IMG/VR virus record: IMGVR_UViG_3300045988_121909
Direction: 5' to 3' (one strand)
Length of the DNA stretch: 64,000 nucleotides
From: a virus
Every line of letters starts with the position of its first letter. Positions within the stretch are counted from its first letter, which is position 1. The notes under the pieces are model-generated. The model did not search any database. It was not told the DNA's origin and saw only the letters and a list, made by a program, of their open reading frames with translations. Positions 6,093-60,136 of the stretch are shown here, one piece after another. A program made the translations under genes and the position numbers.

Positions 6093-6353
6093 ATGTTAGT
6101 AGAAGTTAAGCAAATAACAGAATATCTTGATTCTAATGTCAGTCATAGAGCTATTGTAGAGATAGAACGTGACGGCTTAGGCAGATTTAAGTTTATGTCA
6201 GGACGTTTTAAGAGAGTTTACACTAATCTTACTTTTCCTGAGCTTAATGCTTCAATCAATGTTGAATATATCTGTATGTCAGATGGCAAGTACAATATGT
6301 CTTTAACTGATTTTGAAGAATTTTATCTCTTGAATGCTCTTCAGAGACACTGA
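6093..6353 (+). CDS. hypothetical protein (86 aa)
   Basis: ORF with RBS (aaggagat) upstream. Confidence 0.5.
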   Translation: MLVEVKQITEYLDSNVSHRAIVEIERDGLGRFKFMSGRFKRVYTNLTFPELNASINVEYICMSDGKYNMSLTDFEEFYLLNALQRH

Positions 6354-6405
6354 TTTGACTTCTGAGAGCTTTTCATATACATCTTAATAAAATATGCGCC
6401 TGTGG

Positions 6406-6472
6406 TGGAATTGGCATACACGGTAGTCTTAGAAACTACTTTTTGCGGGTTCAAGTCCCGCTGGGCGTACCA
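6406..6472 (+). tRNA. tRNA with anticodon TAG (nominally Leu) but a short variable arm (type I)
   Basis: Perfect anticodon arm gtagt ctTAGaa actac; T-arm gcgggttcaagtcccgc; CCA. The acceptor has three G-U pairs. No long variable arm. Confidence 0.55.
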
Positions 6473-6480
6473 CTAATACA

Positions 6481-6512
6481 GATAGAACTAATCTTCTATC
6501 TATTTTTTTTGT
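6481..6512 (+). terminator. rho-independent terminator after tRNA cluster 1
   Basis: Hairpin agatagaa-ctaat-cttctatct followed by a T8 run. Confidence 0.6.
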
Positions 6513-6516
6513 TTTT

Positions 6517-6546
6517 GTTTACATTACTCTGATTTTATGTTAATAT
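6517..6546 (+). promoter_or_regulatory. promoter of the GTTTACA-N17-TAtAAT class
   Basis: gtttacattactctgattttatgttaatat, located after a T-run. Confidence 0.5.
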
Positions 6547-6573
6547 TAAATAAAAAACTAAAGGAGAGAGATT

Positions 6574-7401
6574 ATGAAACAACCTTTGATAGTAAATCTC
6601 TATGGTGCACCCGGCGCTGGTAAGTCTACTGGCGCAGCTTATATATTTTCAAAACTAAAGCTGAAAGGTTACAGCGTAGAGCTAGTTACAGAGTTCGCTA
6701 AAGATAAAGTTTATGAAGGTTCAAAAGCAGTATTTGAAAATCAGGCTTATATCTTTGGCAAGCAATTTTTCAGAATGTCAAGAATTAAAGACGTAGAAGT
6801 GATAATCACTGACTGTCCTTTGATGCTCTCTGCATTCTACGCAGAAAAGTATGATTTTAACTATACTGAAGAGTTAAAGGCGCTAGTTAAGAAAGTAAGT
6901 TCAGAGCAACGTGCTTTAAACGTATTCGTACAGAGAGATAAGCCATACAATCCAAATGGTAGATTCCAGTCTGAAGAAGAGTCAGATGAGCTATGCACTG
7001 AGATTACAAATTTTCTAGACGCTAATAAAGTTAAATACATCGATTGTAAAGGAAATGAAGCAGGATATGATGAGCTCATATCAATTGTTGAGCAGAATCT
7101 AGATTATACTTTTGAAATTGTTAGTATTTTACAGAGTCTTGTTCATTACCACATAATCTCTGATGTTATGTTTACTTCACTATGCAATAAGCTTGCGTAT
7201 CTAAAAGAGTTCAATATAGAACCTGTTGATGACTATCGCGCTATGTGCGAGCTTGCAATATGGATAAACAGCACATTTGACTCACACGTAGTTAGAGAAC
7301 TTACAAGCGACTTTGTATATGAAGAAGCTAAGAAGCTTATACTCAGCATTGAAATGAAATATTGCGCTTTGTGTCAATCTAGGATGGTCAAAGGAGTATA
7401 A
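6574..7401 (+). CDS. P-loop NTPase, putative nucleotide/polynucleotide kinase-like protein
   Basis: Walker A GAPGAGKST close to the N-terminus, in a kinase-like arrangement. No recognisable phosphatase domain. Function inferred. Confidence 0.5.
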   Translation: MKQPLIVNLYGAPGAGKSTGAAYIFSKLKLKGYSVELVTEFAKDKVYEGSKAVFENQAYIFGKQFFRMSRIKDVEVIITDCPLMLSAFYAEKYDFNYTEELKALVKKVSSEQRALNVFVQRDKPYNPNGRFQSEEESDELCTEITNFLDANKVKYIDCKGNEAGYDELISIVEQNLDYTFEIVSILQSLVHYHIISDVMFTSLCNKLAYLKEFNIEPVDDYRAMCELAIWINSTFDSHVVRELTSDFVYEEAKKLILSIEMKYCALCQSRMVKGV

Positions 7402-7404
7402 GAA

Positions 7405-8040
7405 ATGACTACATTTTTTGAAATAATACTCATAATATCGAATATTACAGCTTTCATATTAATGACGTTTTGTATACTAGTATTTTATAGATGTATTATA
7501 CCTAAAAGCGCCAATGATTTTGCGTCTCACAGCAACATATATGTAGGTTATTGTGACTATGAAAAATTACTCATATCATCTACACTGATTACAACTGCAA
7601 TTAATAGTTTACTATCAATTATTAATGTGATTATGCATTTATCTACTGCGCTTGTTACACTGTGTATGTGTATGCTAGCATACACAGTCATATTTGCTAT
7701 ATTGTATACTTGCCTCAAGCTATACAAAAGTTATACTGATAAAATATGTAGAGTATTTTCATTTATTACATTAAATACAAAAAAGTATGATAGTAAAGTA
7801 GTTTTAGCATTATTCAGTAATAAGGATACGCGTTCAACACTTATTAAAACATTTATTGAACCTTTGAATAACTTATTAATCACTGCAAAGAGCTTTAATA
7901 CAAAAGAAAAGAAGATGAAGTTTTATGAAGAAGTTGTAGAAGTAAAGATAGATGAATTTGTAAATGCAATGCAAGATGAGTATAACAAGCTTAAATTACA
8001 AGATGAAAGCGTAATTGACGCGTTTAAGAAACGTATATAA
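7405..8040 (+). CDS. membrane protein (211 aa)
   Basis: N-terminal hydrophobic helices, then a charged C-terminal domain. Confidence 0.5.
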   Translation: MTTFFEIILIISNITAFILMTFCILVFYRCIIPKSANDFASHSNIYVGYCDYEKLLISSTLITTAINSLLSIINVIMHLSTALVTLCMCMLAYTVIFAILYTCLKLYKSYTDKICRVFSFITLNTKKYDSKVVLALFSNKDTRSTLIKTFIEPLNNLLITAKSFNTKEKKMKFYEEVVEVKIDEFVNAMQDEYNKLKLQDESVIDAFKKRI

Positions 8041-8052
8041 AAGGAGATTTAA

Positions 8053-19071: not shown

Positions 19072-19144
19072 CACTGATTACAGTTTAATTGGGTAAACGT
19101 CTGCAATAGCAGAAGATTGCGGGTTCAAGTCCCGTCTTCAGTGG
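19072..19144 (+). tRNA. irregular tRNA-like element (possible pseudo-tRNA)
   Basis: Recognisable D-arm (gtttaattgggtaaac), T-arm (gcgggttcaagtcccgt) and a 6/7 acceptor pairing. No foldable 5-bp/7-nt anticodon arm and no encoded CCA. Confidence 0.3.
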
Positions 19145-20967: not shown

Positions 20968-20996
20968 TTTACGTATCAAGCCATTTGTGATATAAT
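20967..20996 (+). promoter_or_regulatory. promoter GTTTACG-N17-TATAAT positioned to transcribe solo omega-RNA-like copy 3
   Basis: gtttacgtatcaagccatttgtgatataat, ending 7 nt before the conserved aatgcggttgacgac. Confidence 0.5.
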
Positions 20997-21003
20997 AATA
21001 TTA

Positions 21004-21121
21004 AATGCGGTTGACGACCGTATTCTCGCTTGGTAAATTTGCTCTAGAGGGTAGTTAGTTTTAAAGCTAACGAGAGTGACCTAAGCTTACCCAGGAATGC
21101 GCTTGAGCGCAACGTCATAAT
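21004..21121 (+). ncRNA. solo omega-RNA-like / TnpB right-end element, copy 3
   Basis: Conserved with copies 1 and 2. Followed about 15 nt later by a hairpin (aaagagaat..attctcttt) and a T-run. Confidence 0.5.
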
Positions 21122-21161
21122 ATTATTTATTAAAGAGAATTTACCTATTCTCTTTTCATTT

Positions 21162-22770: not shown

Positions 22771-22970
22771 TGAACATTAAGATTTGTGATATTATCAGTA
22801 AAATATTGATTGTAGTTGGAGTTATTACTCTAACCGGTATAGTTAATGAAGTTGAGCAGGTTGCCCCTTCTTTTATGAAGATTTTTGTTAATCTCTTTGT
22901 ATCTAGCACTGCTATATTCTGCGGTACTAAGATTTGCGGAAGAGCTAAAGAAGTTAGAGAAGATAACTAG
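22771..22970 (+). CDS. small membrane protein (66 aa)
   Basis: ATG after aaaggagat; hydrophobic core ILIVVGVITLTGIV. Confidence 0.45.
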
Positions 22971-23088
22971 TTTAATCTCTCTTACATTTTTACTTTTAGC
23001 TAATAATATTTACGTCAAGAGCACTAGAGTCTCTCAGAAGTTAATCTCGTACGCCTGAGATATATCTGAGAGCCATACGGAGGTATAA

Positions 23089-27901: not shown

Positions 27902-28588
27902 ATGAGTATTTATCTATACGGAGATTTACATAGAACAATTGATTTAGAGCCATTAGTAGAATTATCAAAAGAAAAAAGAGTTACAGATGAAGATGTTTTA
28001 ATCATTCTTGGCGATTTTGGCGGTATATGGTATAATGAAAAAGATGACAGTGAATTCCTTAATCGCTTGGCTGATTCTGTTTCTTATAAGCATATTCTAT
28101 TCATAGATGGCAATCACGAAAATTTTAATAGATTAAATAAACTACCTATCGCTGAGATGTATGGAAACCCTACTCACGAAGTGTTAAAAGATAAAATCTA
28201 TCATTTAATGAGAGGGTACAAGTACACTATTGAAAATAAGACATTCTTTGCAATGGGCGGTGCTGATTCTATTGATAAGCATCGAAGAATTGCTAATGTT
28301 GACTGGTGGTCTGAAGAATTACCTAGTAACGAAGAGTATGAAAGAGCGTTTAAGACTTTAGATGAGAATAACTTTACTTTTGATTATATTATTTCTCATT
28401 GTACGTCTTCTTATATATTAAATGATATTTCAGCTTATATGCACGATAAGAATAAACTAACAAACTTCTTTGACAGTATTCTTTGTGATTTAAGCTACAA
28501 AAGATGGTATTTTGCTCATTATCATTTGAATAGAATTAGCCCGATGTATAACGCAGAGTGCTTGTATTTGAGATTAGTCGAGATTTAA
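27902..28588 (+). CDS. lambda-phosphatase-type metallophosphoesterase
   Basis: Motifs YGDLHR, LGDFGG (GDxxDRG-like) and DGNHENF. Starts at the ATG at 27902 (MSIYLYGDLH). Confidence 0.65.
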   Translation: MSIYLYGDLHRTIDLEPLVELSKEKRVTDEDVLIILGDFGGIWYNEKDDSEFLNRLADSVSYKHILFIDGNHENFNRLNKLPIAEMYGNPTHEVLKDKIYHLMRGYKYTIENKTFFAMGGADSIDKHRRIANVDWWSEELPSNEEYERAFKTLDENNFTFDYIISHCTSSYILNDISAYMHDKNKLTNFFDSILCDLSYKRWYFAHYHLNRISPMYNAECLYLRLVEI

Positions 28589-28690
28589 CTTCTGACTGCT
28601 GTTTTTATCATAGGCGGTAATTATTATTAAAAGAGCATAAAAGTTTACGAGAGACGATTCTGATACGTCTGGAGTATATCTCAGAGCTAT
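28580..28690 (+). repeat. palindromic intergenic repeat element (MITE-like), inverted copy of 39694-39801
   Basis: Reverse complement of the 39694-39801 element; contains the 16-bp perfect palindrome centred on gagatatatctc. Confidence 0.6.
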
Positions 28691-28741
28691 ATTTTACTAT
28701 ATATGTAAAATAAAACATTTAACATAAAATTGTTTACAGTT

Positions 28742-38536: not shown

Positions 38537-38539
38537 ATT

Positions 38540-38812: not shown

Positions 38813-38840
38813 AATACAGCCTCGAGCTGTATTTTTTTTT

Positions 38841-38870: not shown

Positions 38871-38898
38871 AGAAAATATCGAAAGAGAGGTTTACGTT

Positions 38899-39693
38899 AT
38901 GTTATCAAAGATTTTTAAAAAGTACGAAGTTATAATCAAGACGTTTGGTTCTGACTCAACATACACTATTTCAGGTAACGCTAATGAGATTAGACGCCAG
39001 TTAAAAGGCATTAGAGTTAGTGAAGAAGTAGTGTTTAACTGTGACATATCTGCAGAATGTACATTTATTCGAGACGCATTCAACAAGAGTATTGTAAAAT
39101 GTGCGTCTACAAAAGAGCTTGAAGAGGTTGTTAAAGTAGATTGTTTTATATCTGATTATACGATTGTTACAGTAAAAACAAGATTTATTAAAGCCGATAC
39201 GATTGACAAGAATCGTGTAAATAAGTTCGGCGAGAATATAGAAGAGAAGCGCAGTAAAGCATTCCAGAATCTTAAGACAAAGATTGATAAGTTTAATACT
39301 CAGTATGATAAATTGAAAGAAAACATACAAGCAATAAAAAATTCTAAGCTTGCTGAAGACGCTTTGAACGAAATTCTTAGTGAGAGTAAAGTACGAAGCT
39401 TACGTCATCTTATAAGAGGTGATTATTTTGCTATCTGCGCAAAATCAGAAGCAATTATTGGTTTTGAAAAATTCTTTATCACTGCTGAGCTAGTTGCAGA
39501 TAAGGCAGTGGTAGATAGTGAACAAATGTATTTACGCTTTGAATTAGTCTCAATTGCACGTAAGTCTGATAGACACGATGTACTTGATTTAAAAAGAAAC
39601 GTAAGGAACATAACTACTGAAGAGAAATTGAAGTACGTTGATTTTATCACAGAAGCTAATATTGATATCTCTAATAAGCTTAGCGAACTATAG
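38899..39693 (+). CDS. hypothetical protein, GEN-I-x(2)-KR paralog family member 5
   Basis: Contains ...NKFGENIEEKRSK... Confidence 0.55.
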   Translation: MLSKIFKKYEVIIKTFGSDSTYTISGNANEIRRQLKGIRVSEEVVFNCDISAECTFIRDAFNKSIVKCASTKELEEVVKVDCFISDYTIVTVKTRFIKADTIDKNRVNKFGENIEEKRSKAFQNLKTKIDKFNTQYDKLKENIQAIKNSKLAEDALNEILSESKVRSLRHLIRGDYFAICAKSEAIIGFEKFFITAELVADKAVVDSEQMYLRFELVSIARKSDRHDVLDLKRNVRNITTEEKLKYVDFITEANIDISNKLSEL

Positions 39694-39801
39694 CCCTCAG
39701 ATATATCTCAGAGACTCCAGAATCGTCTCTCGTAAACTTTTATGCTCTTTTAATATAAATTACCGCCTATGATAAAAACAGCAGTCAGAAGTTAAATCTG
39801 G
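39694..39801 (+). repeat. palindromic intergenic repeat element (MITE-like), direct copy of 60031-60136
   Basis: ctcagatatatctcagag...cgtctctcgtaaacttttatgctcttttaata..attaccgcc..cagaagttaa. Near-identical to 60031-60136 and inverted relative to 28580-28690. Confidence 0.6.
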
Positions 39802-39816
39802 CTGCGATATGAAAGG

Positions 39817-41457: not shown

Positions 41458-41522
41458 ATTGTTTACAACTTTGCCTCTTTATGTTAAGATATCCATATCA
41501 AAAAGCATAGAGAGGTATTTTT

Positions 41523-41720: not shown

Positions 41721-41722
41721 AA

Positions 41723-45430: not shown

Positions 45431-47242
45431 ATGTTTAATTATAAAGAAGCAATAAGGGAATTAAATAAGCACACAGAGTTATATGATTCTGGCACTCCAG
45501 TACTTTCAGATAAAGAATGGGACGATTTATATTTTCAAGTAGTAGAATATGAAAAGACTCATACTCCTGATAAAGATTCACCTACGCAGAATATTCACTC
45601 TAATACATTGAATAAAGTAGAGCATTCTACTCCTATGCTTTCTTTAAAGAAAACAAAAGATATTGAAGAAGTAAAGAAATTCTTTAAGAATAAAGACATT
45701 ATTGCTATGGCAAAGCTAGATGGCTTGACTTGTAGATTAACATATAAGAATGGTAAGTTATTCAGAGCAGAGACTAGAGGAAATGGCAGAGTAGGTGAAG
45801 ATGTTACGCATAACGCTATGCTTATACACAATATCCCTAAATCTCTACCTTATGATATTGTAGTTGAAGGCGAAGTTATTTGTAAATACTCTGATTACAC
45901 TGGTTCTTCTAATGTAAGAAATTACGCTGCAGGTAGTATGAGACTTAAAGTTGCAGAGCAGAGAAATTTATCATTTATCGCTTTTGATTTAATCTCTTCT
46001 GATAAGTCATATTCTCTACTATCTGAAAAGCTATATGATTTAGGTAGAGATTTTGAAGTAGTGCCTTATAGATTTGATTTTGATACAGAGGCATTAAGAG
46101 AACAATGTGTTGATTTACCTATTGACGGCCTAGTTTATAAGATTAACAATATTAAAGAATATGAGAGCTTAGGCAAAACAGAACATAGTCCTAACGCTGC
46201 TTTAGCTTTTAAATTCTATGACGAGCTTTATGAAACAGAGTTGCTAGATATTATATGGACACAAGGTAAGACAGGTAATCTTACTCCTGTAGCGAAGTTT
46301 AAGCCTGTTATTATTGATGGCACAAATGTTCAGAGAGCTAGTATGCATAATCTTGATATAGTAGAAAAGATATTACGTACACCGAGCGTTGGGCAGAAAG
46401 TTTATGTGTGTAAAAGTAATATGATTATTCCTCAGATTCATCACGCAGGCGAGTCTACAAACAAGATTATTGAAATTCCAACAATTTGCCCTGACTGCGG
46501 CTCTGAATTAAAAATCGATACAAAAGGAGTAACACAGCTCGTATGCGTAAATAAACATTGTCCTGCTAAGATAAAGAATAAGTTAATTAGATTTGCAGGT
46601 AAACAAGCGTTGGATATTGAAGGCATCTCTAACTCTACTATTGAGAAGTTGATTAAGCTAGGTTGGTTAACTTGCTTATCAGATTATTTTAAACTCTATA
46701 CTCACAAAGAAGAGTGGTTGCAGCTTGATGGCTTTTCCGATGTTTCTGTAGATAAAATTTTAAATAATATCCCTAAAGAGATAGAGCTATGGAAATTAAT
46801 CGCTAACTGTGGTTTAGAAAATATCTCTAAGCAAACAGCAATAAAGCTAGTTGATTATTTTAATGATTACTCTTCTTTTAGAAAAGCTATTGATGAAAGA
46901 TTTGATTTTTCTCAGATACCTGGTATCAGTTCAGGCATTTCTAATACACTGCTAAACTTTGATTATTCAGAATTAGACGAAGTGCTTAACTGCATCAAAG
47001 AAGTACAACTAAATAAAAAGAGCGGGAATGTAAAAGTTTGTCTAACAGGCAAAATGAGCAAAGCAAGAAAAGATATAGTTAAATTTTTAGAAGAGCATAA
47101 CGCTGAAGAAGTTGCTATAAACAAAGCTAATTTTCTTGTTTGTAACGAACCTAACTCAAGTAGTAAGTATAAGAAAGCAGTGCAATTAGGCATAAAGATT
47201 ATAACTGAAGAAGAGTTGTACGCTAAATTGAACGTTAAGTAA
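45431..47242 (+). CDS. ligA: NAD-dependent DNA ligase (LigA-type)
   Basis: Adenylation motif AKLDGLTC (KxDG), Cys4 zinc finger CPDCGSEL..CVNKHCP, HhH region and C-terminal BRCT-like domain (KVCLTGKMS). Length 604 aa. Confidence 0.85.
   Translation: MFNYKEAIRELNKHTELYDSGTPVLSDKEWDDLYFQVVEYEKTHTPDKDSPTQNIHSNTLNKVEHSTPMLSLKKTKDIEEVKKFFKNKDIIAMAKLDGLTCRLTYKNGKLFRAETRGNGRVGEDVTHNAMLIHNIPKSLPYDIVVEGEVICKYSDYTGSSNVRNYAAGSMRLKVAEQRNLSFIAFDLISSDKSYSLLSEKLYDLGRDFEVVPYRFDFDTEALREQCVDLPIDGLVYKINNIKEYESLGKTEHSPNAALAFKFYDELYETELLDIIWTQGKTGNLTPVAKFKPVIIDGTNVQRASMHNLDIVEKILRTPSVGQKVYVCKSNMIIPQIHHAGESTNKIIEIPTICPDCGSELKIDTKGVTQLVCVNKHCPAKIKNKLIRFAGKQALDIEGISNSTIEKLIKLGWLTCLSDYFKLYTHKEEWLQLDGFSDVSVDKILNNIPKEIELWKLIANCGLENISKQTAIKLVDYFNDYSSFRKAIDERFDFSQIPGISSGISNTLLNFDYSELDEVLNCIKEVQLNKKSGNVKVCLTGKMSKARKDIVKFLEEHNAEEVAINKANFLVCNEPNSSSKYKKAVQLGIKIITEEELYAKLNVK
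46999..47022 (+). promoter_or_regulatory. 24-bp motif AGAAGTACAACTAAATAAAAAGAG (copy 2) embedded in-frame inside ligA
   Basis: Exact consensus copy encoding KEVQLNKKS in the linker before the BRCT domain. Confidence 0.4.
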
Positions 47243-47247
47243 AATAT

Positions 47248-47320
47248 AGCTCTCAGATATATCTCAGACGTACGAGAATCATTTCTGAGAGCTTTTTATG
47301 CTCTTAATGATAGTTTATAT
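47248..47320 (+). repeat. palindromic intergenic repeat (short form) acting as a terminator-like hairpin
   Basis: agctctcaga-tatatctcagacgtacgagaatcat-ttctgagagct followed by a T-run; the ttatgctctt..taat tail is shared with the long copies. Confidence 0.55.
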
Positions 47321-47361
47321 ACATAAGCTAGAAATAACGTAGAGAGATTAAAAGAGAGACT

Positions 47362-48561
47362 ATGGAAGTAATACGCAACTGCCCAGTATGTAATAAAGAG
47401 TTTAATGCAAAACGTGGACTATCTTCATATTTAAGTAAAACTTGCTCAAGAAGTTGTGCAGGTAAATTAAGTACTAAAGAAAAAGTATTTAACTGTAGTA
47501 AATGTAGCAAAGAGTTTAAACGTTATAATTATGAAAAACAAGATTTATGTATAGAATGTTTTAACGCTGAAAAGAATTGGAATAATTTTTGCTTAAATTG
47601 TAAAGTACGCAAAACCTCTTCAGAAACAAGTGATTTTTGTTCTGAACAGTGTCAAAGAGCTATGAATAAACAAGCTAAAGTAAAAAAGATTCATTATTGT
47701 ATAGAATGCGGACAGCGTTTTCAATCTTATGGAGATGCTAAGTTCTGTTCCTCTTCTTGTAGAAATACTCATACACGTAAAAATATGACGTATAAACCTA
47801 GAGAATGTATTTACTGCGGGAATATATTTACTCCTACCTCTTCATCTCAGAAAGTTTGTACTGATTTTCATACAATAGAATGCAAATATTGCAGTAAAGA
47901 AATAAAGTTGCAAGGCACTATCCCTAAGAATAAGCATTTCTGCGATAGAGTGTGTCAAACATTATATCAGCATAAATCATCTTTAAATTTAAAATTATTA
48001 GATGAGTATAAAAATGCTAATGATTGGGCTAAGAAATTTGAGAATAAAAGAAAGCGTAAACCTAATGCAGTAGATTTTAAAGATTATTTTGGAGTAAATC
48101 TACCTAAATGGGTTGATTATTCTAATTTTGCTAAGAATACAACTAAGTCAAGATTAGAGCAAAAAGTCTTGAATTATATAATAGATAATTTTGAACTAGC
48201 AGTAGAAATAAACAGAAAAATTCTACCTGTTACAAAATACAAACAAGAAATTGATATACTATTGCCTGACATACAATTAGGCATTGAAGTGCAAGGCAAT
48301 GCTACTCATAGTAAAGTTGAAGGCGAATTCCCAATGGAACTTTACGGAGGTGCTCTTAAATCTACTCCAGCAGATTTTAAAAAGAAACAAAAAGCTGCAG
48401 AGGAATTAGGCATCACTCTAATAGAAATATGGGAAGATGAAATAGAAAACAATAGCTTTAAAAAAGAGCTATCATGTTTAATAAACGAAAGGATTGTAGA
48501 TAAAATATGGCAAGAAAGAAAGTCACTGAACACTATTCTGCTGAAAACATCACATCTCTAA
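47362..48561 (+). CDS. homing-endonuclease-like protein with multiple zinc ribbons and a C-terminal nuclease domain
   Basis: At least eight CxxC pairs and a CSRSCA module like the other HE-like genes. C-terminal DILLPD..GIEVQG..H...E motif. Sits between ligA and the topoisomerase genes. Confidence 0.55.
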   Translation: MEVIRNCPVCNKEFNAKRGLSSYLSKTCSRSCAGKLSTKEKVFNCSKCSKEFKRYNYEKQDLCIECFNAEKNWNNFCLNCKVRKTSSETSDFCSEQCQRAMNKQAKVKKIHYCIECGQRFQSYGDAKFCSSSCRNTHTRKNMTYKPRECIYCGNIFTPTSSSQKVCTDFHTIECKYCSKEIKLQGTIPKNKHFCDRVCQTLYQHKSSLNLKLLDEYKNANDWAKKFENKRKRKPNAVDFKDYFGVNLPKWVDYSNFAKNTTKSRLEQKVLNYIIDNFELAVEINRKILPVTKYKQEIDILLPDIQLGIEVQGNATHSKVEGEFPMELYGGALKSTPADFKKKQKAAEELGITLIEIWEDEIENNSFKKELSCLINERIVDKIWQERKSLNTILLKTSHL

Positions 48562-50987
48562 CAGATGTAGAGCATCTTAAGAAAAAGATTAACTTAACGT
48601 TTGGTAGAGAAACAGGTGATGCTGAGCACCCATACTCTCTGCAGAAAACAGTGTCAATCAGAGAAATTATTGATAACAGCGTTGGCGAAATCATAAGAAA
48701 TTTTGCAGATAGAATTGAAGTAACATTCGATAATGATGGTTTTGTAACAGTGCTTGATAACGGTAGAGGTTTACCTATTGACACTGCTACTGACGCATTA
48801 GGAAATGAAGTAAATGGTTTTATTATTACTCTTGGAACTCTTCGTTCTGGTGAGAATTTAGGTAGTAATTCATCTGGTGGTAAGAGTACATCTCAAAACG
48901 GTTTAGGAGCATCTGCTGCTTGCGCGTTATCTGAGAGAGTAGATATTGAAGTTTATAGAAACAATAAAATCTATTACATGTCATTTAAAGATTTTGTACC
49001 AGGCTATTTTAATGATGAAGATGAGTTTAAGTCTTTAAAGAATAAAGCCACTCTAAAATCAAGAAAAGATGATAGAGCAGAGTATTATAAGACTAATTTT
49101 CCTACAGGTACTAAGATAAGAATTAAGCTTGATGATAATATTTTCTCAAGCCCTTACCCTGTAGACGTAGATGATTTAAATGATAGACTTAAAGGTGTTA
49201 GTTATCTTTTACCTAAGTCTCATATTAAAGTAATTGATAACTTTAAGAATAATGCTGAGTATGAGTATTACTCTGAGAATGGTTTAAGAGACGCACTGCC
49301 TGAAGGCGCAGATGTTGTAGAGTTCACTACCTCTAATGATTATCTTGAGAAAAATGTTGCAGTAATGACTGATAGTGCTATTCAGCATAAAGATTTAATT
49401 CGTACTGTTGATATAGAGCTTGCATTTTGCTACGCCGATGAGAGTAACGTAGATACATACGTAAACACTATAAAAACACGACTAAAAGGTGTACATCTAC
49501 AAGCTTTTGAAGACGCTCTTGCAGATTCATTTAACTCAGAGATTAAAGGTAAAGATAAGCCTAATGCTGAAGATTATAGAGAAGGTTTAAATCTACAATT
49601 ATCTGTGTTTATTCCAGACCCTCTATTCTCTGGACAGACAAAAGAAGAGCTTGCAGGTAAAGAAGTAAAGAACGCTATCTATGACGCAGTAAAAGCAGAG
49701 CTAATGAAATTTATTTCTACGAAAGAAAATTCGTCTATTGTAGAAAAGATTACATCAAGAGCTGTTACAATGATGCAAGCTAGAAAATCAATCGCTGATA
49801 GTAAGAAAGTAGCAAAAGAAAAGCTGAAATCTGATATTAACGGTATGCGTAATAGAGTTGAGAACTTTATCGACTGCAGAAGTAAAGACTCAAGTAAAAA
49901 AGAACTGTATATAGCAGAGGGTGCATCAGCACTTGGTTCATTGAAGCAAGCAAGAAACCCTGAGTATCAAGCTTTATTCCCTATTAGAGGTAAGATTAAG
50001 TCAGTATATAAGACAAGTGTTACAGACGCGTTAAGCAGTCAACTTATAAAAAATATTATTCAGCTTGTCGGTACAGGCGTAAATACAAAAACTACAAAGT
50101 GTGATTTAAGTAAGTTAAATTTTGACAAAATTATATTTGCGCACGATTCAGATGTTGATGGCTGTTTTTCTGGAAATACAAAAATTAAATCAACTGATGG
50201 TAACATTTATACTTTTGAGCAGCTTATACAAGATAAGATTACATCAGTTGGAGTATATGCTAAAGACAAAAATGGAAATATAGTTCAAGCAGAAGGCGTA
50301 TTCCCTAGAGTCACAAAAGAGGTTAATGAGCTAATAGAACTTGAATTTGAAAATAAATTTAAAGTTAGATGCACTCTTGACCATTTATTCTTATTGGACT
50401 CAGGTGAGTATAAGGCTGCTATGTGTTTAACTACTGATGATTTGATTAGTTCAGAGTCTGGCAAATGCAGAATTTTAAACTCTACGATAATACACTTAGA
50501 CGAACCTATTAAAGTGTATGACATAACTGTTCCTGAGTATGGTAGCTTCCTAATCAGCACTTCAAATGATAATACAGAAGGTGTATTCGTACATAACTGT
50601 CATATCAGCTCTTTGCTTTTAACTCTCTTTTATACTTTTATGCCAGAACTTATAAAAGACGGGCACGTTTACTCATTACAAACTCCATTATTTGAGATTG
50701 TGTATAAAGACAATACAAAAGCATTTGCGTATGATGAACAAGAAAAGATTAAGCTCACGAAAGACAGAGACGTAAAGAAAATAATGCGTAATAAAGGTCT
50801 TGGTGAAATCTCAGCTGAAGATATGGCACTTTGCTTAAATGAAAGCACTCAGAGATTAGTAAGATTTACAATGGAAGACGCTAAACACGCTGCTAAATTC
50901 ATAGAATTATTTATGGGCAACGATTCTAATGTAAGAAAAGATTACATTACTGAACACGCAGATGAATATGAATTAGATTTTGAATAA
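48507..50987 (+). CDS. DNA topoisomerase II large subunit (T4 gp39 / GyrB-like), intein-containing
   Basis: GHKL ATPase N-terminus (YSAENI..EH..K, NG.GLP), Toprim region (EGASA, FAHDSDVDG) and C-terminal GyrB-like tail. Host-protein continuity DVDG|CHISSLLLTLFY is restored after removal of the 145-aa insert. Confidence 0.8.
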   Translation: MARKKVTEHYSAENITSLTDVEHLKKKINLTFGRETGDAEHPYSLQKTVSIREIIDNSVGEIIRNFADRIEVTFDNDGFVTVLDNGRGLPIDTATDALGNEVNGFIITLGTLRSGENLGSNSSGGKSTSQNGLGASAACALSERVDIEVYRNNKIYYMSFKDFVPGYFNDEDEFKSLKNKATLKSRKDDRAEYYKTNFPTGTKIRIKLDDNIFSSPYPVDVDDLNDRLKGVSYLLPKSHIKVIDNFKNNAEYEYYSENGLRDALPEGADVVEFTTSNDYLEKNVAVMTDSAIQHKDLIRTVDIELAFCYADESNVDTYVNTIKTRLKGVHLQAFEDALADSFNSEIKGKDKPNAEDYREGLNLQLSVFIPDPLFSGQTKEELAGKEVKNAIYDAVKAELMKFISTKENSSIVEKITSRAVTMMQARKSIADSKKVAKEKLKSDINGMRNRVENFIDCRSKDSSKKELYIAEGASALGSLKQARNPEYQALFPIRGKIKSVYKTSVTDALSSQLIKNIIQLVGTGVNTKTTKCDLSKLNFDKIIFAHDSDVDGCFSGNTKIKSTDGNIYTFEQLIQDKITSVGVYAKDKNGNIVQAEGVFPRVTKEVNELIELEFENKFKVRCTLDHLFLLDSGEYKAAMCLTTDDLISSESGKCRILNSTIIHLDEPIKVYDITVPEYGSFLISTSNDNTEGVFVHNCHISSLLLTLFYTFMPELIKDGHVYSLQTPLFEIVYKDNTKAFAYDEQEKIKLTKDRDVKKIMRNKGLGEISAEDMALCLNESTQRLVRFTMEDAKHAAKFIELFMGNDSNVRKDYITEHADEYELDFE
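50163..50597 (+). other. mini-intein (145 aa) inserted in the Toprim DxDxDG-HI motif of the topoisomerase gene
   Basis: Begins with Cys (CFSGNTKI, block A), has block B TLDHLFL, ends VFVHN followed by Cys+1. In frame; no homing-endonuclease domain. Confidence 0.8.
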
Positions 50988-50999: not shown

Positions 51000-52967
51000 A
51001 TGCATATAACAGATTTAGAAGTAGGTTCAAGTATCAGAGACAATATGATGTTAATGAGCTTAGAAGCTATTACAAATAGAGCATTGCCTATTCTTGAAGA
51101 TGGCCTTAAGCCTTCTCAAAGAAAAGTATTATATACAATGAAAACTATGGGACTTTTCAATAAGCTAGCAAAAAGCGCTAACGTTGAAGGTCAAACAATG
51201 AAAATACATGCACATTCGGGAACATACTCGACAGCAGTGAATATGACTAGAGAAAAAGAGAGTTTACTTACACCTTTTATTTTTGGTAAAGGTTCTTTTG
51301 GTAAAGTATACTCTTCAGCGATGGATGCTGCTGCGCCAAGATATTCAGAATTATCACTTGCGCCAATCTGTCACGAAATGATGGACAAGTTGTATATGCA
51401 CCCAGAGAATATGGTTGATAACTATGATGGCACATTAAAAGAACCTGTTTTACTCTCTATGCCTTTTCCTAATATACTTGCAAACCCTCAGTCAGGTATT
51501 GGTATTGGTTTCGCTTGCGATTTTCCTTCTTTTAATCTAGCTGAGTTATGTGATGCTTGTATAGCAGTGCTGAATGGAAATAAGAATATTCGTGAAATTA
51601 TGCCTGTACCAGATTTTTCTACTGGAGCTTATGTTCTATATAAAGACGAAGACGTTGCAGATATATTTGAGAATGGTTCAGGTAAAGTAACTCTTAGAGC
51701 AAAGCTTAGTATTGATAAAGAGAATAACGTCATTAATGTAGACGAAATTCCTTATAATACAACTGCTGAGAGTATAATTGACTCTATTCAGAAGTGTTAT
51801 GATAAAGGGCAGTTTCCTGAGATTCTTGACGTAAAAGACGAAATTGGTATTGACGGCTTTAGAGTCTCTATTGAGCATAAGAGAAGTGCAGATGTAAAAG
51901 CTCTTATAAATAAGCTTTATCTACTAACTCCTCTTCAGAGTACATTCTCTTGTAATATGACGTTAGTTTATAATAACAGACCTGCTAAAATGGGTGTGTA
52001 TGAAATTATAGACAAGTGGATAGAGCATAGAAAAGCTTGGGTACAAGACGAAATAAACTTTGAAATTGCTGAAAAAGAAGATAAACTACATTTACTTAAA
52101 GGCTTAGCTCAGATTCTACTGAATATTGATAAAGCTGTAGAGATTGTTAAAGGTAGTAAGAGTGATAATGAAGTAATCTCTGGCTTAATGAATGAATTCT
52201 CTATTGATGATATTCAAGCTGAGTACGTTGCTAATATTAAGCTAAGAAACTTTAATGAAGAGTATGTGCTTAATCGTACAAAAGAAATTACTGAGCTAGA
52301 AAAAGCTATCAAAAAGCTTAAGAAAACAAAGCCTATTGATGTAATGATTGACGACTTAAACAGAGTTAGAGATACATACGGCATCCCAAGAAAAACAGAG
52401 ATTTTGACTGAATGGGAAGAAGTTAAGCCTTTAGCGAAAGAAAAGAAAGAAGTTAAGATAGATGGTACATCTACTCTATTCATCGGCAAAGATATTAGAA
52501 GAGTAAATGGTGAGAGCAGAGCTAAAACTCCAGACCATTACGAAAAGATTGTTGTTGATAATAGAGATAGTATTCTTCTATTCACTAATAAAGGAAGATG
52601 TTTTAAAATATTCGTGTATAAGATTAAACCCAATATCGCACACGAATTTGAAGGTGGTTTAGTTAAATTCAAGGAATTAGAAATGGGTGAGCAGATTATC
52701 GCTAAGATTCCTCTAACTAAAGAAACTAAGTCAAAAACATTATTTATTGTTTACGATAAGAAAGTTGCAAGAATTCCTCTTGATGGTTTTGATAATTCAA
52801 GAAGATTAATGTCAAAAGGAATTAGACCTGACGCTGTTGACGTACGCCTCGTAGACGACGATGAAATATTTGAAGTAAACGGTCAAAAATTTAATACTAG
52901 CCAGTATAGCATAACTAAAAACCGACTTGCACAAGGTGTTAATATTAGAAAGTTTGTCTCAGAGTGA
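51000..52967 (+). CDS. DNA topoisomerase II subunit (T4 gp52 / GyrA-like)
   Basis: N-terminal LEAITNRALPILEDGLKPSQRKVLY matches the GyrA/gp52 breakage-reunion motif; 655 aa. Confidence 0.8.
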   Translation: MHITDLEVGSSIRDNMMLMSLEAITNRALPILEDGLKPSQRKVLYTMKTMGLFNKLAKSANVEGQTMKIHAHSGTYSTAVNMTREKESLLTPFIFGKGSFGKVYSSAMDAAAPRYSELSLAPICHEMMDKLYMHPENMVDNYDGTLKEPVLLSMPFPNILANPQSGIGIGFACDFPSFNLAELCDACIAVLNGNKNIREIMPVPDFSTGAYVLYKDEDVADIFENGSGKVTLRAKLSIDKENNVINVDEIPYNTTAESIIDSIQKCYDKGQFPEILDVKDEIGIDGFRVSIEHKRSADVKALINKLYLLTPLQSTFSCNMTLVYNNRPAKMGVYEIIDKWIEHRKAWVQDEINFEIAEKEDKLHLLKGLAQILLNIDKAVEIVKGSKSDNEVISGLMNEFSIDDIQAEYVANIKLRNFNEEYVLNRTKEITELEKAIKKLKKTKPIDVMIDDLNRVRDTYGIPRKTEILTEWEEVKPLAKEKKEVKIDGTSTLFIGKDIRRVNGESRAKTPDHYEKIVVDNRDSILLFTNKGRCFKIFVYKIKPNIAHEFEGGLVKFKELEMGEQIIAKIPLTKETKSKTLFIVYDKKVARIPLDGFDNSRRLMSKGIRPDAVDVRLVDDDEIFEVNGQKFNTSQYSITKNRLAQGVNIRKFVSE

Positions 52968-52989
52968 AATCTGAGACTTGCTTTTTGTT

Positions 52990-53762: not shown

Positions 53763-54155
53763 ATGGAATTAAAAAGAAAGTTTGAATTAGAACTTATTGA
53801 CAGAGAAGACGTTGAAAACAGCTTTGAACTCGTCGAAATTATTAGTTTGCAAGATAATGAACTAAGAGGAGTTTTCGAATGCAAACTTGATGATTTTTCT
53901 ATGTACTACGAAGATGATTTAGATTCAACTGATTTAATCGGCGCAGTAACAATCAGAGTTCTTGCAACTGTTGAGCTTGATAAGAATAATGTAAAAAATA
54001 ATCAGTTAGCTAGCTATAACATTCGCAACATAAATATTGATACACCTGAAACGGAAGAATATATCGCTGACACTTTAGAGATGTATTACGCGTATGGTGA
54101 AATCAACAGTGTTGTGTTTGACGTAGTCTTAACAGAAAAAGACTTCTGTATTTAA
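53763..54155 (+). CDS. hypothetical protein, E-L-x-D...L-x-G-(V/I)-F-E paralog family (family A) member 1
   Basis: Shares N-terminal RKFELELIDRED..ELVEIISLQDNELRGVFECKL with ORFs at 54308, 55433 and 60542. Confidence 0.5.
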   Translation: MELKRKFELELIDREDVENSFELVEIISLQDNELRGVFECKLDDFSMYYEDDLDSTDLIGAVTIRVLATVELDKNNVKNNQLASYNIRNINIDTPETEEYIADTLEMYYAYGEINSVVFDVVLTEKDFCI

Positions 54156-54162: not shown

Positions 54163-54282
54163 ACGAGAGATACCAGAATCATTTCTAAGAGACTTTTATA
54201 TTTTATAATGGTTTATACGACAAGTATGCTAAAGTTTACGAGAGACGATTTTGATACGTCTGAGATATATCTGAGAAACATA
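54163..54282 (+). repeat. composite palindromic intergenic repeat (two partial inverted copies)
   Basis: cgagagataccagaatcatttctaagag...gtttacgagagacgattttgatacgtctgagatatatctgag. Confidence 0.5.
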
Positions 54283-54307
54283 TATAAGTGAAAATGGAGA
54301 AAGATAA

Positions 54308-58086: not shown

Positions 58087-58092
58087 TGTTTT

Positions 58093-58130
58093 GCTCTCAG
58101 ATATTTAACTTCTGAGAGCTTTATATGTTT
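58093..58130 (+). terminator. terminator formed by a short palindromic-repeat copy
   Basis: gctctcaga-tatttaact-tctgagagc (9-bp perfect stem) followed by tttatatgtttt. Confidence 0.6.
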
Positions 58131-58287
58131 TATTCATAAACCGTTATTTCATTTTCATACTAGCTACCAGTAAAGTTAGTAACAAAAACTATATAGCAAA
58201 TCAAAGATAAAGGGGTGACGTTCTACGAGCCGTGACTACAACAAAATAAGAGAATTAAGAAAAGCAACACAAGAGCGTCACGCTCAA

Positions 58288-59454
58288 ATGACTTGTAAAG
58301 CATTCGAGCTTAAATCACTAAGTCTAAGCTTTCTAAATATCAAAAAAGAAATGCTAACTAAATTCTTTAGGCAAGCGAATTATATTTATAACAGTTTAGT
58401 TGCTGATAGTAAAAAATTTAAAACTACTGACAAAGAAATTACTATTTTATGCGGTGACCATTATGAAATTAGGCGACTTGATTTAGGTTCCGGCATTAAG
58501 CAAGGTATTCGTGATAAATTTATCACTAATTGCAAATCTTTAAAAGGTAAAAAAGATAGTGGTGATAAAATTGGCAAGCTAAAGTTTAAATCTTATACTA
58601 ACGCTATTCCACTTAGGCAATACAAAAATACTTATAATATAAATTTTGATAAAAATACTATTAGAATACAGTGTATTAAGCAAGCATTTAAAGTTAGAGG
58701 TTTAAAGCAAATACCTGAGAATGCTGAAATATGCAATGCTGAACTTATCCGTAAAGCAAGTGGGTACTATATACACGTAGTCATTTTTGTGCCTAAAGAA
58801 AATAAACAAGCAAATAGCAGACAAATTGGTTTAGATTTTGGGATAAAATCTAACGTCACATCGTCTAATGGTGAAAAATATGATGTTAAAGTACCTGAGT
58901 CTAAAGGGACAAAATTAGCATCTCGTAAAACGAATCATAAAAAGAAAGGTTCTAAAAATAGGCAAAAAGCCCAACAAAAGCTAAGAATAGCTTATGAAAA
59001 AGATACAAATAGGAAATTAGATAAAGCTAAGAAGTTAGTTTCATATCTAGACTCTTATGATTTAATAGCATTTCAAGATGAAAATATAAAAGATTGGCAT
59101 AAAGAGTTTGGAAAAGTCGTACAGCATTCAGCTATGGGGTTCATAAAAGCAGTTTTGAAGACCAAAGCAAATTCCATAATGATAAGTAGATATTTTCCAA
59201 GTACTCAAATATGCTCAGTTTGCAGTAAGCTAACACCTCACTCTCTGAATAAGCGAGATTATGACTGTAGCTTTTGTGGTTATCACCACGATGACAGAGA
59301 CGTGAAAGCAGCACAAACGATTCTTGATTATGTAAATGTCTCTCTGGGACGGAGAGCAAATAGTCTTGTGGAGTTAAAGACCTCTGCGCTTAAAGATTTT
59401 TCTTCAAGTATAAGTCTAGACTATGAAGCAGGAAGACCTTACTCTCTAGAGTAA
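58288..59454 (+). CDS. tnpB: IS200/IS605-family TnpB (OrfB), full length, second distinct copy
   Basis: 388 aa; RuvC-I region LDFGIKS, RuvC-II IAFQDEN, zinc finger CSVCS..CSFCG, RuvC-III HHDDRDVKAAQTIL. Its 3' flank is unrelated to the omega-RNA-like repeat at 567-682. Confidence 0.8.
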   Translation: MTCKAFELKSLSLSFLNIKKEMLTKFFRQANYIYNSLVADSKKFKTTDKEITILCGDHYEIRRLDLGSGIKQGIRDKFITNCKSLKGKKDSGDKIGKLKFKSYTNAIPLRQYKNTYNINFDKNTIRIQCIKQAFKVRGLKQIPENAEICNAELIRKASGYYIHVVIFVPKENKQANSRQIGLDFGIKSNVTSSNGEKYDVKVPESKGTKLASRKTNHKKKGSKNRQKAQQKLRIAYEKDTNRKLDKAKKLVSYLDSYDLIAFQDENIKDWHKEFGKVVQHSAMGFIKAVLKTKANSIMISRYFPSTQICSVCSKLTPHSLNKRDYDCSFCGYHHDDRDVKAAQTILDYVNVSLGRRANSLVELKTSALKDFSSSISLDYEAGRPYSLE

Positions 59455-59538
59455 TGGTTAGTCCACGCTCTCTACCTCTACTAATTATCTCAACCTTGAC
59501 GTGTTGTAGAGGCTTATTCAACTAATAGAGATATAAAA

Positions 59539-59562
59539 AGAAGTACAACTAAATAAAAAGAG
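59539..59562 (+). promoter_or_regulatory. 24-bp motif copy 4
   Basis: Exact consensus copy 85 nt after the tnpB stop. Confidence 0.5.
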
Positions 59563-59578
59563 AAAAGGATGCTAAATA

Positions 59579-59635
59579 TAGCTCTGAGATATACTCCAGA
59601 CGAACGAGATTGACTTCTGAGAGCTTTTCATGTAT
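59579..59635 (+). repeat. palindromic intergenic repeat (short form) with terminator-like hairpin
   Basis: agctctgagatatactccagacgaacgagattgacttctgagagct followed by tttcat. Confidence 0.55.
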
Positions 59636-59715
59636 TTATTGTAAAAACTATCACTAATCAAAAACTTATTGTCAGAAGTAAAATCTGACGCAGAAGATTA
59701 AAGAGAGGTAATATA

Positions 59716-59955
59716 ATGCTTAGATTTGCAAGAGATGTGGTGTATTGCAGCATCAATGATTTAGATGAGAGCATCACAGAAAAAATACTAGAAGAGAATG
59801 GTTTATTCCTTAAAGGCGATATTGTCTATATTAAAGCAGGTACTAAATTCGAAGTGCCTAATGAGCAGATGTTTGGCGCGCCTGCAATTATTATAAATGG
59901 TGAGTTAGTTTTATCATTTACAACTGATACACCTATTGAAGTGTATATTGACTAA
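59716..59955 (+). CDS. hypothetical protein (79 aa)
   Basis: ORF with RBS (agagaggta). Confidence 0.45.
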   Translation: MLRFARDVVYCSINDLDESITEKILEENGLFLKGDIVYIKAGTKFEVPNEQMFGAPAIIINGELVLSFTTDTPIEVYID

Positions 59956-59956
59956 A

Positions 59957-59980
59957 AGAAGTACAACTAAATAAAAAGAG
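59957..59980 (+). promoter_or_regulatory. 24-bp motif copy 5
   Basis: Exact consensus, directly after the stop of the 59716 ORF. Confidence 0.5.
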
Positions 59981-60030
59981 TGTGAGAAGAATCCGTATAA
60001 TGTTATTCCAGTGAGTAGTATTACAGAAGT

Positions 60031-60136
60031 GCTCTGAGATATACTCCAGACGAACCAGAGTCGTCTCTCGTAAACTTTTATGCTCTTTTAATAATAATTA
60101 CCGCTTAAGACGAAAATTATTCTCAGAAGTTAAAGG
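60031..60136 (+). repeat. palindromic intergenic repeat element (long form), direct copy of 39694-39801
   Basis: gctctgagatatactccagacgaaccagagtcgtctctcgtaaacttttatgctcttttaataataattaccgc..tctcagaagttaaagg. Confidence 0.6.

Follow-up and report, generated by a model that had tools for sequence, protein, structure and literature searches.

A family of intergenic hairpin repeats with terminator-like and hairpin-less forms in an uncultured lineage of large phages

The virus record IMGVR_UViG_3300045988_121909 of the IMG/VR collection comes from an uncultured large phage. The whole stretch analysed here, 64,000 nt long and called the window below, is AT-rich, and every credible gene in it lies on the plus strand. 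Twenty-five tRNA genes are found between 4.2 and 21.8 kb, and the genes of DNA metabolism include an NAD-dependent ligase, a RecA/UvsX-like gene (28912-30084), subunits of topoisomerase II, a ThyX-like gene, RNA ligases and RtcB. Scattered between the genes is a family of short repeats, the subject of this work, which a preliminary description of the window had presented as elements resembling miniature inverted-repeat transposable elements (MITEs), some of them doubling as terminators. Sequenced phages gave no megablast match to the window, the top protein identity being about 32%, and INPHARED held no match to the region or to either version of the element (the window type or the distant type described below). 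The comparisons rest on five metagenomic relatives with roughly 90-97% nucleotide identity to the window: relative A (IMGVR_UViG_3300045988_098416, about 192 kb) and the near-identical ERZ772949 NODE-5, relative B (IMGVR_UViG_3300045988_112802), relative C (ERZ772909 NODE-262) and relative D (ERZ772979 NODE-3310). A further relative, L015, is 78% identical to the window. The IMG/VR locus L009, also considered as a relative, proved to be a chance tandem repeat. The repeat family is a property of this lineage of uncultured phages of roughly 170-190 kb.

A hidden Markov model (HMM) built from the copies and run with nhmmer against the window (E<1e-4) recovers exactly the nine sites listed in the preliminary description and no others: 6322-6385(+), 23013-23079(-), 28627-28694(-), 39686-39753(+), 47242-47307(+), 54166-54203(+) with 54218-54284(-), 58087-58135(+), 59574-59641(+) and 60025-60091(+). 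A dispersed intergenic family in both orientations is thus real, and one member can be added to it, a minimal hairpin at 52956-52977. The copies are named below by a start position (6336, 23017, 28580, 39694, 47242, 52956, 54166, 54231, 58093, 59574 and 60031). As had been claimed, three of them are long, 39694 and 60031 in direct and 28580 in inverted orientation, and these are mutually 87-88% alike over 104-119 nt. The pattern CTCAGA-N(3-40)-TCTGAG occurs five times in the window against an expectation of 0.08, and CAGAAGTTAAA with at most one mismatch 13 times against 4.4; TCAGA alone is a common pentamer, with 110 occurrences.

The anatomy of the cassette emerges from an alignment of all distinct copies, from the window and from its relatives. 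The full element measures about 110-120 nt, with a 5' boundary near (A)ATATAG. It opens with hairpin 1, made of an outer stem of 9-10 bp (GCTCTCAGA/TCTGAGAGC), a 3x5 internal loop and an inner part with the stem ATCTC/GAGAT and an 8-nt loop, AGACGTAC. A T-run, TTTT(T)AT, follows directly, and then an AT-rich spacer, which is 47-48 nt long in 11 of the 12 measurable copies and whose middle cannot be aligned between copies. Full elements close with hairpin 2, (G/C)TCAGA-AGTTAAA-TCTGA(C/G), which had escaped the preliminary description and adjoins the ribosome-binding site of the gene that follows; the conserved tail of the preliminary description is clear in the copy alignments. Read on the minus strand, the minimal hairpin 1 of copy 58093 (58104-58114) gives ...CAGAAGTTAAA..., which is the hairpin 2 sequence. 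Since hairpin 2 is the reverse complement of a minimal hairpin 1, the two ends of the cassette are inverted copies of one unit. Each full copy holds five TCAGA/TCTGA half-sites, and co-oriented full copies end 0-25 nt from the following start codon.

The perfect palindrome on which the family was said to be centred was not found: neither GAGATATATCTC nor CTCAGATATATCTGAG occurs exactly anywhere, every match carrying at least one mismatch. The core is either CTCAGATATATCTCAG, a direct CTCAG repeat that is not self-complementary, or CTGAGATATACTCCAG, and copies 6336 and 58093 lack it entirely. A true dyad, GCTCTCAGA...TCTGAGAGC, is present in the short forms only. Long and short forms differ by a 7-nt block, TCT-CGTAAAC-TTTTAT in the former and TCT-GAGAGCT-TTTTAT in the latter, and the substitution abolishes the 3' arm and hence hairpin 1; the gctctcaga/tctgagagc arms ascribed to all copies are therefore a property of the short forms, the long ones having had their 3' arm replaced. 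Smaller variants reflect deletion between short direct repeats (6336, without the CTCAG-ATATAT block; 58093, without the inner hairpin) or truncation (54166).

The individual copies can be followed along the window. Copy 6336 (6322..6385, plus strand, nhmmer E=6e-11) is a short form that lacks the first CTCAG-ATATAT block; its hairpin, GCTCT(T)CAGA...TCTGAGAGC, is followed by TTTTCAT, and the copy ends 10 nt 5' of a tRNA-Leu gene (6396). Copy 23017 (22965..23084, minus strand, E=1.2e-23) is a full element anti-oriented to the genes, in the window with a short-type 3' arm and a lost T-run (GAGAGACTCTAG), and its 5' end adjoins the ribosome-binding site of the open reading frame (ORF) 23089-24840. 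The long, anti-oriented copy 28580 (28577..28697, minus strand, E=1.1e-28) is placed between a phosphoesterase gene (27749-28588) and the RecA/UvsX-like gene. Copy 39694 (39682..39805, plus strand, E=4.8e-30), long and co-oriented, ends 12 nt before ORF 39817-40506 and contains an exact 14-mer, CTTTTAATATAAAT, in common with a distant phage group. Copy 47242 (47241..47359, plus strand) is a full short form, with a 10-bp outer stem, an inner stem and TTTTTAT, that spans the interval from the ligase stop codon to the start codon of an HNH endonuclease gene (47362). The added copy 52956 (52956..52977, plus strand) is a minimal unit, GTCTCAGA-GTGAAA-TCTGAGAC, followed by a T-run and then by an early-type promoter; L015 has, at the orthologous position, a degenerate copy of the 6336 type in inverted orientation.

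The site at 54163-54282 is a composite, as had been noted, in which a 5'-truncated plus-strand copy faces a minus-strand copy tail to tail. The former, 54166 (54166..54203, E=1.7e-5), is a short-type fragment (…CAGAATCATTTCTAAGAGAC + TTTTAT) after ORF130, and the latter, 54231 (54182..54284; E=1e-14 and 1.9e-12 in two profile searches), is of long type, anti-oriented, with a shortened tail. Copy 58093 (58087..58135, plus strand) consists of a minimal hairpin 1, GCTCTCAGA-TATTTAACT-TCTGAGAGC, and TTTAT, and lies after ORF117 within an insertion found only in the window. Copy 59574 (59571..59691, plus strand, E=5.8e-25), a full short form, begins 8 nt beyond a late-promoter-like motif, with 25 nt between its end and ORF79; its outer stem contains a G-G mismatch, so that the hairpin is weak, and its hairpin 2 reads GTCAGA-AGTAAAA-TCTGAC. 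Finally, the long, co-oriented copy 60031 (60024..60143, plus strand, E=1.5e-27) lies about 50 nt after another such motif, and its 3' end provides the ribosome-binding site (AAAGGAG) of an ORF for a membrane-like protein of 45 residues (60142-60279). The idea that copies sit just after homing-endonuclease, tnpB or ligase genes is only partly borne out: 47242 does follow the ligase gene, but it also precedes the HNH gene, 58093 precedes tnpB, and 59574 comes after tnpB only because an insertion sequence with that gene landed there. ORF130 (53763-54155) and ORF135 (60542-60949) are paralogues, each adjoining repeat copies.

Folding separates the two forms. The short forms had been described as stem-loops with T-runs that act as terminators, and the predicted folds are indeed strong at 47242 (-19.9 kcal/mol, z -4.5), 58093 (-15.0 kcal/mol, z -5.8) and 52956 (-12.7 kcal/mol, z -3.7), but weak at 59574, 6336 and 23017. 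The three long forms fold like shuffled sequence (z about 0; -0.3 for 28580). A hairpin followed by a T-run is present at 6336, 47242, 52956, 54166 (the fragment), 58093 and 59574, and the five other window copies lack this build of an intrinsic terminator. With the one extra copy of relatives A, B and C, all seven copies of this kind are co-oriented with the genes, against two of the five remaining copies (Fisher exact test on 7/0 versus 2/3, p=0.045). Those that are anti-oriented either belong to the long type (28580, 54231 and the A and B versions of 23017) or have lost the T-run (23017 in the window). From this we infer that hairpin 1 and the T-run of the short form would serve as a factor-independent terminator or insulator for the upstream gene. 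The pattern of outer stem and T-run also matches in 86 unrelated bacterial genomes, in every case as an isolated terminator-like hairpin and not as a family member; since it occurs there as a lone terminator, the stem is best regarded as generic terminator material.

Homologues of the family can be recognised in a group of phages with a ligase of only 48% identity: two copies in L016, one in L018 and five in IMGVR_UViG_3300008269_000105. The blocks AGAT-ATCT, GTAC-AGAAT, TCTGAGA, the T-run, the exact 14-mer CTTTTAATATAAAT and TAAAA-TT are common to both groups, whose consensuses agree at 44 of 69 defined positions. The top three window matches of an HMM made from the distant copies only are the three long forms (E=2.7e-5, for 39694, then 0.027 and 0.037), in the right register and orientation. 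True distant copies also top the reciprocal search, though with weak scores (E=0.05-1.7). In the distant group, hairpin 2 and some of the left half are built on GTAC rather than TCAGA motifs, and the presence of GTAC motifs at both ends means that the two ends changed together. The distant copies have 3' arms of either a TCTGAGAC or a TCTAGTAAAA type, which tentatively recalls the dimorphism of short and long forms. A terminator was called by the scan in L016, its T-tract being the conserved CTTTTAAT. At least one distant copy, that at L107 4431, is anti-oriented to its flanking genes, and that at L109 12436 is co-oriented with its neighbours. A proposed positional conservation upstream of an SbcC-like gene was dropped, ORF583 not being homologous to that gene.

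The best reading of these data, held tentatively and at somewhat less than an even chance, is that the family is a conserved, terminator-type intergenic punctuation cassette, which recombination has spread and homogenised. Hairpin 1 of the short form would, with its T-run, terminate or insulate transcription of the upstream gene. In the long form, the exchange of GAGAGCT for CGTAAAC would remove hairpin 1 and permit read-through, the remainder of the cassette being kept. The 3' part of the cassette, with hairpin 2, would become the 5' leader of the downstream gene, and the copies would spread and stay alike through homologous recombination or gene conversion rather than by cut-and-paste transposition. 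A selected role in transcription punctuation is suggested by four features together: the terminator-like, co-oriented short forms, the filling of the interval from stop codon to ribosome-binding site, the fixed geometry and the deep conservation.

Several observations weigh against this interpretation. The folds are weak at 59574 (-12 kcal/mol, z -1.5), 6336 (-10.9 kcal/mol, z -1.65) and 23017 (z -1.6), and the helices show no reliable compensatory changes, five apparent double changes all stemming from one misaligned distant sequence. A consensus scan called no sigma-70-type promoter in any element tail or in the distant homologue, which leaves the restart half of the model unsupported; the tails do have a weak TAnnn(T) motif at a fixed position. 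Nor does punctuation explain the fixed length of the spacer, where again no sigma-70-type promoter was called. A terminator would hardly be expected where copy 59574 lies, 8 nt downstream of the late-promoter-like motif. Anti-oriented copies within one-directional gene arrays number three of ten in the window and one (L107 4431) of the five examined in a distant phage, and a purely RNA-level cassette does not account for them. No structure is predicted for the long forms, although conservation is highest among them, and their purpose is not explained by punctuation. Lastly, the two phage groups that carry the family also share tnpB genes 77-84% identical, so that its deep conservation could reflect the horizontal spread of a selfish element.

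Some of these same features would suit a role at the level of DNA, in which the family is an array of protein-binding sites with TCAGA/TCTGA half-sites (GTAC in the distant group) at fixed spacing, bound for instance by a transcription factor of the phage, by a nucleoid or packaging protein, or by a nuclease, and in which the hairpin is a by-product of dyad symmetry. The five half-sites of each full copy, a spacing fixed at 47-48 nt around a spacer of free sequence, the persistence of conserved blocks in the long forms, where pairing is lost, the independence of orientation and the lineage-specific shift of the half-site motif at both ends would all follow from it. We nevertheless consider such an array unlikely: the strict co-orientation of the copies with hairpin and T-run points to a role at the RNA level, at least for them, and TCAGA is, as noted, an abundant pentamer.

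The position of 59574 raises another alternative, namely that the copies are paralogous small-RNA genes, the short forms lying just downstream of AAGAAGTACAACTAAATAAAAAGAG, the late-promoter-like motif, and giving RNAs of about 65-75 nt that end at the T-run. Copy 59574 begins 8 nt past the motif and the extra copy of relative A 24 nt past it, and hairpin and T-run would set the 3' end. Most copies (47242, 39694, 6336 and 58093), however, come after a stop codon and not after a promoter motif, there is no covariation, and the best-placed copy, 59574, has the weakest hairpin. In Rfam only the tRNAs of the window reach the gathering score, and nothing appears even at E<=1 in 59450-60200. This alternative seems very unlikely.

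The distribution of the copies among relatives bears on the question of mobility. In all five relatives each testable copy is found at the same locus, apart from three exceptions. A 6.3-kb block (35521-41828) containing copy 39694 is missing in relative B; copy 58093 belongs to the window-only insertion, which comprises ORF117, the hairpin and tnpB; and the promoter-like motif of ORF74 is closely preceded, in relatives A, B and C, by an extra copy that has no counterpart in the window. At this last site the neighbouring 40-60 nt also differ, so that it is not an exact pair of filled and empty sites. The more divergent L015 has neither copy 47242 nor the HNH gene beside it. No target-site duplication was detected at any copy, and no clean filled/empty pair among the five relatives. 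The MITE-like nature proposed at the outset is not supported by these results. The outcome that the preliminary description had named as counting against mobility, copies always at identical loci, without empty sites and behaving as nothing more than ordinary terminators, is largely what is seen for position, but the long forms are no terminators and are conserved nonetheless.

A non-autonomous element could still be moved in trans, as are doublets of repetitive extragenic palindromes (REPs), known as REP doublets forming hairpins (REPINs) or bacterial interspersed mosaic elements (BIMEs), or MITEs, and spread horizontally. Its mover would be an enzyme encoded elsewhere, either a Y1 transposase like the REP-associated tyrosine transposases (RAYTs) or a homing endonuclease acting through co-conversion. 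The occurrence of both orientations within one-directional gene arrays speaks for it, as does the construction of the ends as inverted copies of one unit, whose motifs match within a lineage and differ between lineages (TCAGA here, GTAC in the distant group), as expected if one protein recognises both. So do the copy that A, B and C have and the window lacks, the joint absence of 47242 and its HNH neighbour from L015, and a nucleotide likeness across groups with a 48% identical ligase that share mobile tnpB elements. On the other side, the only site of presence and absence differs in its flanks, every other copy keeps its locus in the five relatives without duplications or clean empty sites, and about 65 window ORFs include no transposase or recombinase (Y1/RAYT, DDE or integrase) except for two tnpB genes, while the repeat bears no relation to the ends of the tnpB insertion sequence. 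Moreover, the 5' end has no GTAG/CGTC tag, there are only about 10 copies, all in one region of the genome, and the HNH genes beside copies in the two lineages are not homologous, for which reason co-mobility with one HNH family was rejected. An element moved in this way is possible, but we find it doubtful. A bacterial origin, or a host REP family, was also discarded: the core pattern of the family has no match in 185,579 bacterial and archaeal species genomes, and the 86 matches of stem and T-run are the unrelated single terminators mentioned above.

The copies do exchange sequence with one another. Copy 28580 is a mosaic, its 5' 31 nt matching 60031 at 28 positions and 39694 at 21, and its 3' 79 nt matching 39694 at 75 positions and 60031 at 64. 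The 95% identity of the paralogues 28580 and 39694 equals that of the orthologues of 39694 in the window and in A (74/79). At site 23017 the window has a short-type arm and relatives A and B a CGTAAAC-type arm; their spacer has the same length of 47 nt as that of the window, in a different sequence that cannot be aligned even between orthologues. An inversion of this spacer between the inverted end units was considered, but the comparison with composition-matched shuffles was not significant (p=0.17). Site 59574 is chimeric, with a middle and tail of the 47242 type in D and a middle of that type in B, and the orthologues in L011 and L007 are mosaics with 47242-type sequence. Mosaic copies and the switching of form at orthologous sites indicate ectopic gene conversion, which would include inverted copies; it is plausible because the genome encodes its own RecA/UvsX-like recombinase. 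The suggestion of a recombination hotspot holds in this restricted sense. Among about 25 synteny breakpoints, however, only one falls in an element (59632, in D), while five or six are at AAGAAGTACAACTAAATAAAAAGAG and one at an early promoter. One could also imagine that the copies are functionless duplicated intergenic debris surviving by frequent recombination, and both the rarity of breakpoints within elements and the many variants produced by direct-repeat deletion (6336, 58093) or truncation (54166) can be read in this way. Debris would hardly persist as recognisable homologues at 48% ligase identity, with a spacer of fixed length and a form associated with orientation, and we give this possibility next to no credence.

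Copy 58093 is the landing site of a tnpB-only insertion sequence (58131..59466, plus strand; tnpB at 58288-59454), which is not a member of the family. The insertion lies directly after the TTTAT of the copy, matching AGAGAGC-TTTAT|GCTCTCT in relative B, and for this reason we take the repeat as the target of the insertion sequence and not as belonging to it. The probable left end of the insertion, 58131, is deduced from the same match; the position of the right end (...GGTTAGTCCAC|) is set by comparison with three further copies in other phages, which show compensatory changes in a 3' hairpin. The insertion sequence is absent from all five close relatives, and GCTCTCTACCTCTACT, just past its right end, is intact at the empty site of all relatives. 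Two ways of tying the family to TnpB were rejected. The repeat does not represent insertion-sequence ends, as in a palindrome-associated transposable element (PATE), because the right end (four copies) and the upstream region are unrelated to it and no element lies close to two of the four copies. Nor is it a target of TnpB guides, as three omega-RNA-like guides and the guide of the second tnpB match only their own flanks or the empty site.

The empty site forms a hairpin, AGAGAGC-loop-GCTCTCT (L003 11895-11915, L007, L010 10990-11000, L011 4598-4607), whose 5-nt loop stands where the target-adjacent motif of TnpB is expected. The loop differs in all four relatives (TTTGC, TTTAT, ATAAA and TTCAC, the third being the reverse complement of the second), and the stems and flanks are invariant. 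Such variation could reflect escape from TnpB cutting or a flipping of the loop. The start of the window (1-576) is the 3' part of a tnpB gene (Cas12f1-like_TNB, 7.7e-27), and after it (window 1-690) comes a structured sequence of about 125 nt, ATGCGGTTGACGACCG...GCGCAGCGTCATAA, probably the omega-RNA scaffold of that gene. Two further scaffold copies (3696-3830 and 20996-21130, of 63% and 92% identity) lack an accompanying tnpB gene. Each has its own TGTGATATAAT promoter-like box and a different sequence of about 20 nt 3' of the scaffold, and they look like stand-alone omega-RNA genes with different guides. The tnpB genes that are 77-84% identical to that of the window occur in the phages with the 48% identical ligase (L018 1008-3688, L019 2501-3688, L017 186-1358), and that of L018 again lies just downstream of a ThyX gene, directly after the repeat copy of that lineage. 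These observations suggest that the insertion sequence moves horizontally from one phage lineage to another and that it favours intergenic cassettes of this kind.

Two other kinds of repeat accompany the family. The motif AAGAAGTACAACTAAATAAAAAGAG has ten copies (28879, 46999, 56455, 59539, 59957, 60502, 60951, 61149, 61393 and 61649), placed 10-20 nt upstream of start codons, and is also conserved in L015 at 78% identity; it probably serves as a late or middle promoter. Two of its copies bracket the ORF135 cassette (60542-60949), which A and B lack. Fourteen early-type promoter cassettes (3665, 9687, 14265, 17903, 22710, 28733, 30129, 33097, 34084, 37555, 38842, 44797, 52991 and 60292) are composed of a T-run and GTTTACAT-N17-TATAAT and often come directly after a terminator hairpin; one of them is at an indel border (34124). 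The T4-type late promoter (TATAAATA) and the TTTTAATATAAAT box were each tried as a general promoter, and neither is enriched in the window. The MotA-box-like TTTATGCTCTT was likewise set aside, its exact occurrences being confined to the inside of the family.

A few other features of the window may be recorded here. About 430-480 nt within the ORF for the large topoisomerase subunit (48507-50987), at 50141-50620, are absent from A and B, and conversely about 800 nt inside the ligase gene of relative A (site 46403-46469 of the window) are absent from the window; these in-gene insertions may be inteins, introns or insertion domains. A 70-nt gene-end fragment (61070-61139) repeats the 3' flank of ORF 61689-63725 (63786-63855, 79% identity). 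Inside the tRNA cluster, two paralogous ORFs, 18079-18984 and 21813-22703, are linked by a 188-nt repeat of 80% identity and are probably homing endonuclease genes, the first having DUF559/NUMOD3 matches. A borderline twenty-sixth tRNA-like match at 19073-19143 (Rfam, 29.6 bits) was not called by ARAGORN.

Among known systems, an ordinary intrinsic terminator shares with the family a GC-containing stem followed by a T-run and the co-orientation with genes, but it does not explain a homology over some 110 nt that reaches far past the stem, a non-terminating form, anti-oriented copies or maintenance across distant phage lineages. MITEs and PATEs derived from IS200/IS605 are likewise small and non-coding, with hairpin ends and both orientations, and tnpB genes of the IS200/IS605 family are present in the same genome. 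The repeats differ from them in having no target-site duplication, exact empty site or, in the window, cognate transposase, and in ends unlike those of the resident tnpB insertion sequence; by every criterion applied, the family is neither MITE nor PATE.

The REP, BIME and REPIN elements of bacteria, with their RAYT (TnpA-REP) transposases (PMC3733652, PMC8266576), resemble the family in architecture. They too are extragenic imperfect palindromes of 20-45 nt in both orientations, which occur singly (as do 58093, 52956 and 6336) or as inverted doublets with a spacer in a unit of about 100 nt, form terminators or mRNA-end structures and serve as landing sites for insertion sequences (here tnpB at the T-run of 58093). 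The family departs from them in its 5' flank, (A)ATATAG / AAGTG / GTATG, which has no GTAG or CGTC tag, in its long spacer (47 nt) of fixed length, in its roughly 10 copies in place of tens to hundreds and in its residence in a phage and not in a bacterial chromosome, in addition to the lack of a RAYT/Y1 gene among the window ORFs and of matches in bacterial and archaeal genomes. It is conceivable, if rather unlikely, that the family is an ancient, phage-specific counterpart of REPINs with two maintained alleles, one a hairpin terminator and the other hairpin-less, that inserts in either orientation. Both forms seem to recur in the distant group, and the motifs of the two ends change together between the lineages; such a pattern would fit a domesticated or selfish hairpin doublet, both ends of which are recognised by a putative phage protein and which doubles as a switchable transcription stop.

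The punctuation cassette favoured above finds its closest described analogue in the promoter-early stem-loop (PeSL) cassettes of T4-type phages (Arbiol et al. 2010, PMC2839356; Comeau et al. 2014, PMC4122927), though two of the features that define PeSLs fail. Like them, the family is a short, repeated, composite intergenic motif that begins at the stop codon of one gene and extends to the Shine-Dalgarno sequence and start codon of the next; it has a stem-loop that would terminate or attenuate transcription, here in the short forms only and as predicted from folds; and it is concentrated in a variable, ORFan-rich part of a large lytic phage genome, where its copies recombine. The PeSL, in contrast, has a consensus sigma-70 promoter with an AT-rich upstream region, none of which was called here, and lies at indel borders between close relatives, as against the one breakpoint in about 25 found here; the family, for its part, also has anti-oriented copies, a second, inverted hairpin and a hairpin-less form. 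The PeSL-like shuffling joints of this phage are rather the cassettes of T-run and GTTTACAT-N17-TATAAT and the AAGAAGTACAACTAAATAAAAAGAG repeats than the hairpin family. The biology is not strikingly new, and its firm part consists mostly of terminator-like intergenic repeats that recombine. Still, repeated regulatory cassettes are thought to drive gene shuffling in large lytic phages and have been described mainly in T4-type phages of Gram-negative hosts. The nucleotide conservation of the present family exceeds what the surrounding proteins would lead one to expect, and the family provides a sequence tag for this uncultured lineage in metagenomes. If its two forms do switch termination, gene conversion would be a simple way to rewire read-through between neighbouring genes. 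The family thus belongs with the repeated intergenic regulatory hairpin cassettes of large phages, among which it has a distinct build: two inverted hairpin units, a spacer of fixed length, and terminator-bearing and terminator-less forms.

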